DNA of 64,000 nt from Dictyostelium discoideum (lineage: Eukaryota): NCBI GenBank assembly GCA_000004695.1, contig CM000151.3, positions 3,968,001 through 4,032,000 of the forward strand. Reading direction: 5' to 3'. Under the pieces are notes generated by a model. That model did no database searches. It worked only from the letters and a program-made list of their open reading frames with translations, and had not been told where the DNA came from. A program made the translations under genes and the position numbers. Positions 44,481 to 54,919 of this stretch are shown piece after piece; positions within the stretch are counted from its first letter, which is position 1; every line of letters begins with the position of its first letter.

Positions 44481-47400
44481 TTAAAACCAAGGTTGAATAT
44501 TTAATTTTTGATAAAGATCATTTGCAGTTGAATTTGCTATTGATAATTTATCAGGATTTTCTTCAATTTTGATGATTTCAGCCCAACATAATGCTTCTTC
44601 CAATTGTAATTGTCTTGCTTTTGATTCTTTAACACTTTTATATAATAAAATCAAAGCTTTCTTTTTGAATGATTGTAATTCATTAGAGTTTGTTGAAACA
44701 CTACTATTACTTGATAAATCAGAGGCTTGACTTGCAGAAAGACTTTCATTAAAACTTGATTTTCTACTACTACCACTATTACTTCTACCACTACCACCAC
44801 TGAATGAAACTGCAGAGATCATAGTTTTCTTATACTTTTTACAGAAATAAGTAATTCTATTTAAAAATAAAATGTAGAGACCATATAGACGTAAATAAGA
44901 TGGATAACAAAAATCTGGACCACCCTTTAAACAAGTTAACATTGTTCTTAACCAAACTTCAACAGTTTTATGATCACGTCCTGTTGAATCTTTAAAACTC
45001 TTAAATTTAGAATTATTATTTAAAGATGATGGAGAAGATGGTGGTGGTGGTGGTTGTTGAGGTGGTGGTTGTTGTTGTTCTTTTTTTTTAATCAATTCAT
45101 TGATTTCAGAAATATCAGAAGCATCATTTATAATTGATTCCTTTAAATTTATGAAATTATCATCAAATCCCATTAAATCAAATTGACTATTAACTGTTGG
45201 TATTGTTGTTGTTGCTGCTGTTGATGATGACGATGATGATGATGATGATGATGTTGGATTATCGTTATATAGATTTTTAAAGAATTCATCATTTAAAATA
45301 AAAAGTAAAACACGAGCCATTAAAATTAGTGATAAACTTATTTCTGTTCCATATGCTGGTTTATCTGAATTTATTAAATCCATAGCTCTTTGAATTGATA
45401 CGATTGATTTTTTACTTTTACCTTTTGAGAAATAAATAACTGATAACAATGCTTTATTAAATATTTCTTCTGTACCTTCTGGACTTGGTCTAACCAATAA
45501 ACTATTCTTTAGTTGAATATGAGCTTCCTTAATTTTACCTTGATAAATTAAACAATAAGTTGAATATTGATAGAATGAGAATCCACATGGAAAGAATGGA
45601 TAATTAGTATGTGGTGTCAATAGTTCAATAGTTGGTGATTGAACCATATATCCTCCTTCTACTTGTCCATCCTGTTGTTGTTGGTGGTGTTGTAAATGTG
45701 ATAAATTTTGACTATGACGATGATGTTGTTGTTGTTGTTTTGGTAATGTCAAACGAAGTGGTATTCTAGGTGGTACCATTTCATATATTTTTTGTAATGT
45801 CAATGGTTCATTTGGTGTTTGTGGTTGTTGTTGTTGTTGTTGTTGTTGTTTTTGTGATTGTTGAGGTGGTTGTTGTTTTTGTTGTGTTTGTTGTTGAGGT
45901 CGTGGTTGATGTTGTGTTGATTGTTGATGTTGTTGTGATTGATTATTAGTATTATTAGTATTAGTATTATTATTATTATTATAACTATTATTACTATTAT
46001 TACTATTATTATTATTATAATTATTATTATTATTATTATTTTCATCATCTTTTTTTTCAATTTTAATTGTTCCTTTAATTAAAATTTGAAATTGATTGAA
46101 ACCATAGAAATCATCAAAAACTGAATTTACGAAACCAAATGATTGAATTTCATCATATTGTTTTTTATAATTCTTTTGATTGATTAATAATCTATAGATG
46201 ACAGAAGAAAAGTTAATTTGTTCACCTAAACCTAATAAGAATAAATAATCGCAAATTAAAATATTACAAAAGTATAAGTCACCTCTAAGTAATTGTTGTG
46301 AGAGGTAAACAAAGAGGTTGAATTCGAATTCTGCCTTTGTAAATAAATCTAAATTTAAAGAGAATTCCAATGCTGAAAGATCCAATGATTGAGTAACTTT
46401 TGGCCAAGAACATTGATTTAAATGACCTAATGAATTGGATGACAATGAATACATTAATAATGAACCAGCATCATGGTCGTCTACGCTCATATAAGCAGAT
46501 AGCAAACAATCGACCAATCGTTGAGAATGTTTGGCATGAGATATTGAAACTTTAGTAACCAATGAAAACACTGATAACACCATTGACAATTGTGATAAAC
46601 AAATCGATAGTTGTGGTAAAATCAATGATGATGGATATTGAGCGATTGGTTGAAGTTTTTCAGTGGATTTGGAAGCACAATAAGCTGCATAATTCAACAT
46701 TGTAGAACGACTATACAATTCAACCAATTTACAATAGATACTAGAAATCTCTACAACCTCTTGAATATCTGGTGTATTGTTGGTAAACTTTGGTTGAGTT
46801 TTATATTGTTTCTTTGAAGAGATTGCTTTCTTTAAACTCGATTTTGCATGTTGAGTTAAAATTGAAAATGTCATTGAAGTTGACATTGCCTTTGGTAATG
46901 GCTCTCCCATAATACTTAACGCTTGTAAAAGATATGATTCACCTTGTGATAAATAACCAATAGATAAAAATGCTTCACCAATTCTTTTAAATGCTTTTGA
47001 ATATTTTATTTTCTCTTCTTTATTCAATGTAAATGTATCTTCAATTTTATCAAAAAAGTAACCATTATTAATATTATTATTATTATTATTATTATTATTA
47101 TTATTATTATTATTATTATTATTATTATTATTATTAATATTTGACGATGACGATGATGATGATGATTTAAATGATAATGGTTTAGTTGTTTTTGTTGGTT
47201 GTATTTGAATTGAATTATTTTTAAATAATTGAGATTCTTTAAAAGTAAATTTAAAATCAAAACTAGTTGAATCTGGTTGAATTAAATTATTTCTTTTTGC
47301 ACGGAAAATTCCAAGATATTCTGAATAATATTTAATGATATCCAAGTATTTACCAAGTTTTAAACAATGTTGAGCAGCATCCCAAGTTGATTGTAATGCT

Positions 47401-53400: not shown

Positions 53401-54919
53401 ACATTACTATATACAGAAGATAATTTACTAAAATCGAAATCTTTACTAAGTTTTGATCTTGAAAGTTGTAATTTAAGTGGAAATGATTGAATACCTGAAG
53501 CTATTTCATAATTTCTCATCATATTATACATTCCTAAAAATCCATCACCACCTGTAAGTAATAACCATGTTTTATTATCACCTCCTATACTACCTAAAAA
53601 AACTTCGCCAAATCCAACATAAATATTAAATAGTGGATCTGTAATTTGTTGTTGTTGCTGTTGTTGTTGTTGTTGACTATTATTTGTCGATATATTTATA
53701 TTTATACCTGAATTTGTTGATGAAAATGATGATTGTTTTTGTTGTTGTTGTTGTTGTTGTTGTTGTTGTTGTTGTTGTTGTTGTTGTTGTTGTTGTTGTT
53801 GTTGTTGTTGTTGTTGTTGTTGTTGTTGTTGTTGTTGTTGTTGTTGTTGTTGTTGTTGTTGTTGGCTATAAAATTGTGATGATGGTGGTGGTGATGTTGA
53901 TGTCTGTACATAATTTTGTTGTTTAAATCTTTCTTTATTCGATGAAGATGTATTTATATTTAATTTTTCTCTTTCTCTTTCTTTTTGCTGTTCAATTTCT
54001 ACTCTCTCTCTAAAAGAATTTGGATTTGATTTAGCTATTGGTGAAGATATAAATGGTGTCATATTAAACTGTGGCGTAAATGAATCATAATCAGAATGTT
54101 GAATATTTATATTTGATGATGATGATGGCGTTGGTATAGGCATACTATTAGAACTATATGATTGTTCATTCGTATTATTATTTCGGATATTATTAAAACT
54201 ACTATTGCCACTATTATTATTATTATTATTATTATTATTATTATTATTATTAATGTTTATATTATTACTATTTATATTATTACTATTTACAAATAATTCA
54301 GTTTTTCCATTTTCTTCTTTTGAAGAAATTAAATAAAACATTGCTCTAATTTTTTGTGCGCATCTTATTGCTCTTCTTGATAAGAATGAAAATATTTGTT
54401 CACCACTTTCTTTATCACTATTATACCAGACTGCTAAAATCTCTTCACCATTAAAATTTTTTAAAACATCACCTCCTTTTTATTTTGGGAAAAAAAAAAA
54501 AAAAGAAAGATTTTTTGGTAAATTGAGGGATTGGAAAAAAAATTGAAAAAAAAATGGAAAAGGAAGAAAAAAAAAAAAAAAAAAAAATGAAAAAAAAAAT
54601 AAAAAAAAATAAAAAAAAAAAATCTTGGGATCGAGAAATAAAAAAAAAAATAAAATTTACCTTCTTCAGCTATAATTCTAAATGATTCTTCTAAAAATTT
54701 TAAATAATTTGATTGTTTACAATAACTTGAACCTGCAATTGAATAAAATTTTATACATAATACTGGCATCATAGAAATTGATATATCGGGAGCTCTTTCA
54801 TCTTGTGGTTTTAATTTCATAATGTATTTTTGTACAATAGTTGAAGGTATATGTGAAGCTAGTTTTTGCACTCTTTTTGGTGAGTAATTACCATTAAGTA
54901 TATGTTGAATATCTTTCAT
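44481..54919 (-). CDS. Giant (~3400 aa) soluble-adenylyl-cyclase (sAC/ADCY10)-related protein. It has two cyclase-homology domains whose catalytic residues appear replaced, a STAND-type P-loop NTPase, a TPR-like helical region, and very long poly-Q/His-Q/poly-N tracts. Two exons at about 54661..54919 and 44481..54475.
   Basis: Exon 1 is 'MKDIQHILNG...MPVLCIKFYSIAGSSY...SFRIIAEE' ending at a GTAAAT donor. It joins in phase at 'AAAAAG|GAGGTGATG' to 'GGDVLKNFNGEEILAVWY...AIRCAQKIRAMFYLISS...' and then the 3286-aa ORF. CHD-1 is 'NIYVGFGEVFLGSIGGDNKTWLLLTGGDGFLGMYNMMRN' with its beta1-beta3 in exon 1 (no metal-binding Asp). CHD-2 is 'LTFVVVHLFNLSFVGS...RERGAFVICALGFSSF...ILILTEKVICGMVGNKMRSDYTFIGDKLHYSFKW' (the Asp/Lys/Asp of the catalytic site are absent). 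The P-loop is 'LLGRANEIREIMYRYYLLTEQLASTFTLIEADIGMGKSSIITEVF'. The ordering CHD-CHD-NTPase-TPR is that of sAC and Dictyostelium sGC. However, the layout (no ~1000-aa N-terminal extension) and the dead catalytic motifs argue that this is not sgcA itself. Confidence 0.65.
48830..49560. repeat. About 730-nt imperfect (CAA/CAC)n-type repeat (plus strand shows TTGTTG/GTGTTG) encoding a roughly 240-residue Gln/His-rich tract in the giant sAC-like protein.
   Basis: Minus-strand translation is 'QQQQHQQHQQ...QQYQQQQ...'. The plus-strand ORF-track 'proteins' made of L/V are frames through the same repeat. Confidence 0.85.

Follow-up and report, generated by a model that had tools for sequence, protein, structure and literature searches.

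Gene structure and coding potential

The 64,000-nucleotide stretch of Dictyostelium discoideum DNA analysed here (contig CM000151.3, positions 3,968,001 to 4,032,000; hereafter the window) carries a gene whose 3417-residue product has the architecture of soluble adenylyl cyclase (sAC), with other residues at the positions that serve catalysis in such enzymes. The gene consists of two exons, 54919-54661 and 54475-44481, and all of its features described below lie on the minus strand, numbered by position in the window. A single open reading frame (ORF) spans 44481-54341 (9.86 kb), and the frame continues upstream as far as a splice acceptor at 54475. Exon 2 (44481-54475) therefore encodes residues 87-3417 and the stop codon as one ORF. 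Exon 1 (54661-54919, 259 nt) encodes residues 1-86 and the first base of codon 87, and it was assigned from the splice model, from ortholog alignment and from an hhalign match to sAC residues 15-88. This exon holds strand beta1 of the first cyclase-homology domain as well as a helix motif at the N terminus (LASHIPSTIV), and K57 lies here at the site of a metal-binding Asp. The intervening intron (54476-54660, 185 nt) is very AT-rich and has GT..AG ends, and both the reading frame and the homology are continuous only upon its removal.

A preliminary description of this gene, made from the sequence alone, had placed a 5' exon at about 54661-54919, had proposed that it splits the first cyclase-homology domain, and had given the spliced product a length of 3417 residues. 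The two-exon model yields the same length. Homology also supports the 5' exon, because ortholog proteins align without a gap over the splice junction, which falls between IIAEE and GGDVL at the start of GGDVLKNFNGEEILAVW. Altogether, the coding frame runs unbroken for 10.25 kb.

Domain order and relatives

From its N terminus, the protein comprises two cyclase-homology domains (CHD1 and CHD2, corresponding to C1 and C2), a STAND-type P-loop NTPase, a helical region and a TPR-like region, which is the order found in sAC-type proteins. For comparisons over the full length, an alignment (A3) of 1280 conserved columns, here called family blocks, was built from six amoebal sequences. When these blocks were compared by hhalign with 80 full-length bacterial sAC-type proteins, 1191 of the 1280 columns were aligned with a probability of 100% and E=8e-119. 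Because this alignment spans positions 2-1354 of the 1363-position template, we regard the protein, from its first helix motif through to its C-terminus, as collinear with the sAC-type cyclases. The order of two cyclase domains, P-loop and TPR that had been read from the letters thus agrees with the alignment, with the last part better described as TPR-like. A profile search with the family blocks likewise retrieved bacterial proteins named ‘class 3 adenylate cyclase/TPR’, with E-values down to 2e-56 and coverage of at most 78% of the blocks.

An exhaustive phmmer search with residues 363-1385 as query returned 1195 proteins at E<=0.001. The top four matches (E 1e-135 to 1e-148, identity 44-46%) come from Heterostelium album (PPL_11288), Synstelium polycarpum, Acytostelium subglobosum and Tieghemostelium lacteum, and the fifth is EukProt entry P0005, a protein of 1991 aa with 33% identity. 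These five relatives are collinear with the window protein and are 31-46% identical to it over the conserved blocks. Their database names are only generic (‘hypothetical protein’, ‘Orc1-like AAA ATPase domain-containing protein’ or a bare gene-model identifier), and AAA_16 alone is detected by Pfam in these relatives. All later matches have E-values of 1e-24 or weaker and are proteins of about 1350 aa, mostly bacterial; those scanned with Pfam show the architecture of sAC, with AAA_16 and TPR besides two Guanylate_cyc domains. Further orthologs, for example a copy in D. purpureum, were not obtained by a profile search that returned only bacterial cyclases and that also missed the known dictyostelid orthologs. 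The Synstelium gene model apparently lacks the helix ‘RRAxxCAQKIR’, which may be a gene-model error.

Detection and fold of the cyclase-homology domains

CHD1 is encoded in two halves. The N-terminal half (54330..54886, residues 12-135, with the intron inside) was delimited by hhalign and contains GGDVLKNFNGEEILAVW, in which E97 stands at the position of sAC D99, and the helix ‘RRAIRCAQKIR’. The C-terminal half (53439..53645, residues 364-432) reads DPLFNIYVGFGEVFLGSIGGDNKTWLLLTGGDG and has N370 at the position of K144, which binds pyrophosphate in sAC. A linker with low-complexity inserts (52500..53438, residues 433-745) leads to the second domain and includes LLWCHIPTHIRVL, identified by alignment with bacterial homologs as a second copy of the N-terminal helix motif. 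CHD2 itself (52059..52499, residues 746-892) is homologous to sAC C2, and the same bacterial alignment shows that the segment beginning EGGEILCDETTKNKC (51849..51974, residues 921-962) is the equivalent of the ‘ILCDxxT’ tail that follows C2 in sAC-type catalytic cores.

Pfam recognizes neither domain. The Guanylate_cyc model (PF00211, gathering threshold 21.9 bits) gave no match on residues 1-1000 (E<=1), and none when CHD1 and CHD2 of the window protein and CHD2 of two orthologs were scanned singly (E<=10); with the same model, the bacterial homologs score 60-93 bits. For CHD2, the relationship to sAC can nevertheless be followed from the single sequence (E=2e-4 against human sAC C2), through a six-sequence family profile (E=7e-11 against human sAC 286-415), to hhalign against a 120-sequence reference alignment (99.5% probability, E=1e-22, human sAC 283-415). 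CHD1 was compared as residues 12-135 joined to 364-432, with the intervening insertion taken out. Against sequences in the PDB, its single sequence and its family profile gave noise or a marginal cyclase match (E=0.06). The profile does match the first of the two cyclase domains in the bacterial homologs with 40-55 bits (E 1e-9 to 1e-5 when scaled to 1.8 billion sequences), and hhalign aligns it with human sAC 15-178 (98.2% probability, E=5e-14). The homology of CHD1 is therefore detectable only through intermediate bacterial sequences.

Structure prediction agrees with these assignments. An AlphaFold2 model of residues 21-600 of the compact Synstelium ortholog, computed from a 75-row alignment, has a predicted template modelling score (pTM) of 0.82, and its structured parts mostly have predicted local distance difference test (pLDDT) values above 90. 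A Foldseek search of the PDB with this model placed human sAC in all top 24 positions (E=3e-19, target-normalised TM-score 0.65) with both domains aligned, and C1-C2 pairs of membrane cyclases rank after these. Both cyclase-homology domains retain the class III fold, and in the ortholog model they are arranged as an sAC-like intramolecular C1-C2 pair. The presence of two such domains, as proposed earlier, is accordingly supported by sequence profiles for both C1 and C2 and by the structural matches of the ortholog.

Replacement of the catalytic residues

Residue roles in human sAC were taken from Table 1 of PMC12867704, and the sAC sequence was checked against PDB 4clf. Positions were mapped by hhalign, except for R416, which was located by extending the alignment of CHD2 with sAC by hand. 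The reference set of active-type sequences (n=120) consists of the 119 nearest non-amoebal homologs and human sAC, and in this set D47, D99 and N412 are each present in 120 of 120 sequences and R416 in 119 of 120.

Within C1, the metal-binding D47 is replaced by K57 (R, K, K and K in the relatives, so that each of the five sequences covering the region has Lys or Arg), and the phosphate-binding loop I48-S49-G50 that follows beta1 is deleted in the window protein and in all of its relatives. The second metal ligand, D99, is E97 here and A, E, E or Q in the relatives, and the pyrophosphate-binding K144 is N370 here and Asn in all relatives. Within C2, the base-recognising K334 is D795 (D, E, K, N and N in the relatives), T405 is retained as T869 (V, V, V, V and I), N412 is H876 (H, H, H, H and N) and R416, which contacts the alpha-phosphate, is K880 (Q, H, K, Q and N). 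Of the two residues of the bicarbonate site, K95 corresponds to K92 here and to Q, Q, Q and S in the relatives, and R176 corresponds to Y403, at the edge of the alignment, and to N, S, Y and N. Every residue set with which sAC binds the two metal ions, pyrophosphate, the base and the transition state has thus been exchanged. The same catalytic losses occur in the five relatives, namely the four named dictyostelids and the EukProt entry. EukProt P0005 is a more distant member of this clade of dead cyclases; its C1 has no GGD..NGxE segment, and its residue at the N412 position is still Asn.

Structural residues of the domains are retained at G90-G91-D92, G98, W105, G150, G158, G169, R290, G341, C346, G349, G394, G397, R401, Y404 and G408. 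Taken together with the replacements, this pattern indicates that the fold has been retained and the chemistry removed consistently over the clade. Moreover, several of the residues now found at catalytic and pocket positions vary little or not at all among the amoebal sequences (K/R57, N370, H761, Q798-R799, E853 and H876), which hints at a remodelled pocket and not at a merely inert one or at random decay.

The preliminary description had reported substituted catalytic residues in both domains. The alignment agrees that the Asp, Lys, Asn and Arg residues are absent, but C2 of sAC-type enzymes never has the Asp pair; the relevant losses are the Asp pair in C1 and K334, N412 and R416 in C2. 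The Lys site of CHD2 had also been placed wrongly, at ‘VICALGF’, whereas the equivalent of K334 is D795 in ‘SVIDLVQ’. The concern raised at that stage, that misalignment of degenerate strands might conceal the canonical residues, is answered by the careful alignment, in which they are missing.

The NTPase and C-terminal regions

The STAND-type P-loop NTPase (50679..51422, residues 1105-1352) matches Pfam AAA_16 with E=4e-7. Its Walker A motif ADIGMGKSS (51279-51305, residues 1144-1152, with K1150 as the Lys) and its Walker B motif IVIILED (50793-50813, residues 1308-1314) align with EGEAGIGKS and ILEDAHWLD of the active homologs, and both are intact. The NTPase that had been recognized by eye is therefore well supported. 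A Pfam scan, which had been suggested as a means of verifying the architecture, finds nothing with the Guanylate_cyc and TPR models and scores AAA_16 at 31.1 bits, just below the cut-off of 32.6; the orthologs reach 37-53 bits.

The helical or winged-helix region of the STAND module (48219..48713, residues 2008-2172) was located through collinear hhalign alignment with the bacterial ‘KAEGNPFF..’ block. It is followed by an alpha-solenoid with low-complexity loops (44484..47621, residues 2372-3417) that hhalign places collinear with the TPR region of the homologs. An AlphaFold2 model of the C-terminal 1078 residues of the window sequence is an all-helical repeat built from helix pairs (pTM 0.71, with pLDDT mostly above 90 where it is structured). 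The earlier assignment of TPR repeats has the collinear alignment and the helical model in its favour; Pfam TPR gives no match in the window protein, however, and the Foldseek matches of the model are weak. We call this region TPR-like, and not TPR, because the best structural matches reach only E 0.02-0.1.

Conservation was expressed as mean pairwise identity among five dictyostelids. It is highest for the NTPase (0.63), followed by CHD2 (0.55), CHD1 (0.49) and the helical and TPR-like C-terminal regions (0.42-0.47). The dead cyclase domains are at least as conserved as the C-terminal half.

Low-complexity insertions

More than one third of the protein is low-complexity sequence. CHD1 is interrupted by an N/Q/S-rich insertion, delimited from the translation, of about 228 aa (53646..54329, residues 136-363). 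An interruption at this point had been noted before, although its length had been given as about 150 residues. In the orthologs the insertion occupies the same loop, between an alpha3-like helix and the next strand, and measures 255-285 aa except in Synstelium, where it has about 30 aa. A second insertion of about 590 aa (48810..50579, residues 1386-1975 of the translation) separates the NTPase from the helical region and consists of poly-N, then Q/P-rich and then poly-Q/H sequence. These two insertions, at residues 136-363 and about 1386-1975, and several more account for the extra length of the protein.

At the DNA level, an imperfect triplet array of the CAA/CAT type (48822-49680, 859 nt) encodes about 290 residues of poly-Q/H, and a second array of the ATA/TAT type (50456-50619) encodes a poly-N run; the insertion of about 590 aa contains both. 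The strong spike in GC skew and AT skew at 48-50 kb is attributable to these two arrays.

Genomic neighbourhood

The window has a G+C content of about 22% and carries FNIP-repeat and other typical social-amoeba genes. One further gene bears on cyclase biology. A multi-exon gene on the plus strand (9236-12011) encodes an N-terminal transmembrane helix, an extracellular region, a second transmembrane helix, a canonical class III cyclase domain with the motifs FFLDIAGFT and KIKTIGDAYMA (Guanylate_cyc E=8e-63) and a poly-N tail. These features are consistent with the germination adenylyl cyclase ACG (acgA). The gene lies 32-45 kb from that of the window protein, with about ten unrelated genes between them. 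The preliminary description had placed acgA about 35 kb away; a cyclase gene with the topology of ACG is indeed found at this range, and it is a candidate for acgA. The proximity of the two genes is probably a coincidence.

Eight other neighbouring genes could be named from Pfam matches. On the plus strand these encode an N-acetylglutamate synthase/kinase-like protein (450-2879), a VID27 protein (5188-6843), a zf-C3Hc3H protein (32217-33665) and an FNIP-repeat protein (61040-62737), and on the minus strand a class I tRNA synthetase of the Trp/Tyr type (12092-13225), a RING and ZZ protein (19188-20660), a protein kinase (24986-27550) and a Kelch-repeat protein (36937-38226). None has an obvious connection to the gene described above.

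Comparison with known systems

Full-length mammalian sAC (ADCY10) and the sAC-type cyclases of bacteria and protists have the same domain order as the window protein (class III C1-C2, AAA_16 and TPR) and are collinear with it throughout. Both C1 and C2 are homologous to those of sAC, the C1-C2 fold modelled for the ortholog fits sAC crystal structures best, and the Walker motifs are shared. In contrast to sAC, the window protein lacks the catalytic residues and the beta1 phosphate loop, and the bicarbonate-site residues are not conserved. It also differs from sAC-type cyclases in giving no Guanylate_cyc match and in being 2.5 times longer through its low-complexity insertions.

Within the same group of organisms, the soluble guanylyl cyclase sGC (sgcA) of Dictyostelium shares the sAC-type topology; both GCA and sGC are treated in PMC8684759. 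This enzyme is the main active guanylyl cyclase and carries an N-terminal localisation segment of 1010 residues (PMC8684759) that directs it to F-actin, and the window protein has neither the activity-conferring residues nor such a segment. A catalytically dead point mutant of sGC still supports pseudopod orientation, and the AAA-ATPase domain is required (PMC8684759). This catalysis-independent, AAA-ATPase-dependent role in chemotaxis serves as a functional precedent for the window protein.

Two other comparisons are more distant. The Pseudomonas aeruginosa protein in PDB entry 6yii, compared here through its PDB title and its structure match alone, has a cyclase fold and was named as ATP-binding by its depositors, and it is a much weaker match (TM-score 0.34-0.40). 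This protein reportedly lacks cyclase activity. The STAND regulators MalT, AfsR and PH0952, which have TPR sensor domains and are all matched by a profile of the wider family, carry their helical and TPR repeats behind an AAA_16-type NTPase, an arrangement resembled by the window protein with its TPR-like region. These regulators carry DNA-binding or other effector domains, whereas the window protein carries a tandem cyclase-fold pair.

Interpretation and alternative explanations

On the basis of these alignments, we consider it likely that the protein is a pseudo-enzyme belonging to the full-length sAC architectural family, and that it functions as a signalling scaffold or switch and not as a cyclase. 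We infer from the residue replacements that it would synthesise neither cAMP nor cGMP. A plausible mechanism is that a remodelled cleft between C1 and C2, presumably lined by the family-specific polar residues (K/R57, N370, H761, Q798-R799, E853 and H876), would act as a ligand-sensing or protein-docking module. This module would report to the STAND NTPase switch, and the TPR-like solenoid might then recruit partners, or the protein might oligomerise. A true cyclase, as the preliminary description had proposed, may conceivably be a partner.

Several observations weigh against this interpretation and should be kept in mind. The N-terminal model represents the Synstelium ortholog, whose identity to the window protein is about 40-50%, and not the window protein itself. 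At the D99 position, Glu (E97) is a conservative replacement, and T405 of sAC has its match in T869; for these reasons a very weak or altered activity is conceivable for the Dictyostelium protein alone. Finally, the best Foldseek matches of the C-terminal model, although they are TPR proteins (LGN/Pins, APC5, TONSOKU, Rap and the STAND-TPR sensor PH0952), are weak ones, with E-values of 0.02-0.1.

A sharper form of the same interpretation holds that the C1-C2 pair is a small-molecule receptor that binds a nucleotide, a cyclic nucleotide or an anion without turnover and thereby gates the STAND switch. STAND proteins are usually ligand-gated. The invariance or near-invariance of the polar residues listed above, all of which occupy catalytic or pocket sites, would suit such a role, as would the appearance among the structural neighbours of 6yii, entitled ‘Class III adenylyl cyclase-like ATP-binding protein’ (E=1.2e-6). 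However, the deletion of the phosphate-binding loop and the variability of the K334 position (D/D/E/K/N/N) argue against canonical ATP binding, and the bicarbonate-site residues K95 and R176 are not conserved. We judge a receptor function of this kind to be unlikely on present evidence. Also unlikely is a more detailed proposal in which the dead pair has become a receptor whose metal-free, conserved cleft binds a metabolite or second messenger and gates nucleotide exchange and oligomerisation of the STAND-TPR part; the true cyclases themselves might supply one possible ligand, a cyclic nucleotide. If this were true, social amoebae would possess a sensor resembling NLRs or the apoptosome built on a cyclase fold, and an ancestral signalling role of the poorly understood C-terminal region of sAC would be revealed.

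That the protein retains nucleotidyl cyclase activity, or performs a related reaction with non-canonical residues, appears very improbable. E97 could in principle hold a metal ion, T869 corresponds to sAC T405 and the overall fold is kept, but each of the five sequences that reach the D47 site has Lys or Arg there, the I-S-G loop is deleted, two orthologs have A or Q at the D99 site, K144, N412 and R416 have each given way to other residues, and the replaced positions are invariant or nearly so in the 120 active-type relatives. One might also suspect a decaying pseudogene, or a resemblance to cyclases that arises by chance or from a faulty gene model, given that Pfam misses the cyclase domains and that more than one third of the protein is of low complexity. 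We give this explanation hardly any credence. The frame is intact over its 10.25 kb, the splice junction is backed by orthologs, there are five collinear relatives, and the cyclase-homology domains, with profile E-values (5e-14 and 1e-22) that lie far beyond chance, are at least as conserved as the C-terminal half; the intact frame, the collinear dictyostelid orthologs and the conservation of the dead domains together exclude decay and chance resemblance. The idea that the gene is sgcA itself, which has in its favour the shared architecture class and sAC topology (PMC8684759), has next to no chance of being correct. C1 begins at about residue 20 here and not after a 1010-residue N-terminal localisation segment as in sGC (PMC8684759), C1 is predicted to be incapable of metal binding, sGC is catalytically active and the window protein lacks the catalytic residues, and relatives in other species bear generic names and not those of cyclases. 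Judged by the published features of sGC (PMC8684759), the identity with sgcA was rejected for want of a segment of about 1010 residues and of an active site, in agreement with the impression given in the preliminary description.

Implications for the cyclase family

Open-literature searches returned no description of the gene, of its orthologs or their locus tags, of a Dictyostelium sAC paralog, of an sAC-type pseudo-cyclase, of ‘sgcB’ or of the 6yii protein. Public genome annotations certainly include the gene, listed as an uncharacterised protein, and what is new here is the recognition of its cyclase ancestry and of the catalytic loss throughout its clade.

Dictyostelium is a classic model of cAMP and cGMP signalling, and five cyclases are known from this organism (ACA, ACB, ACG, GCA and sGC). 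By that count, the gene described here would be a sixth member of the Dictyostelium cyclase family, one that has been overlooked by standard domain annotation. To our knowledge, the role of the STAND/TPR module in mammalian sAC is still unclear. Because the whole architecture and the NTPase have been kept while catalysis has been lost clade-wide, the gene can be regarded as a natural separation-of-function allele for the STAND/TPR module of sAC-type proteins. It would thus offer, in a tractable organism, a natural test of the roles of the sAC family other than cyclic nucleotide synthesis.

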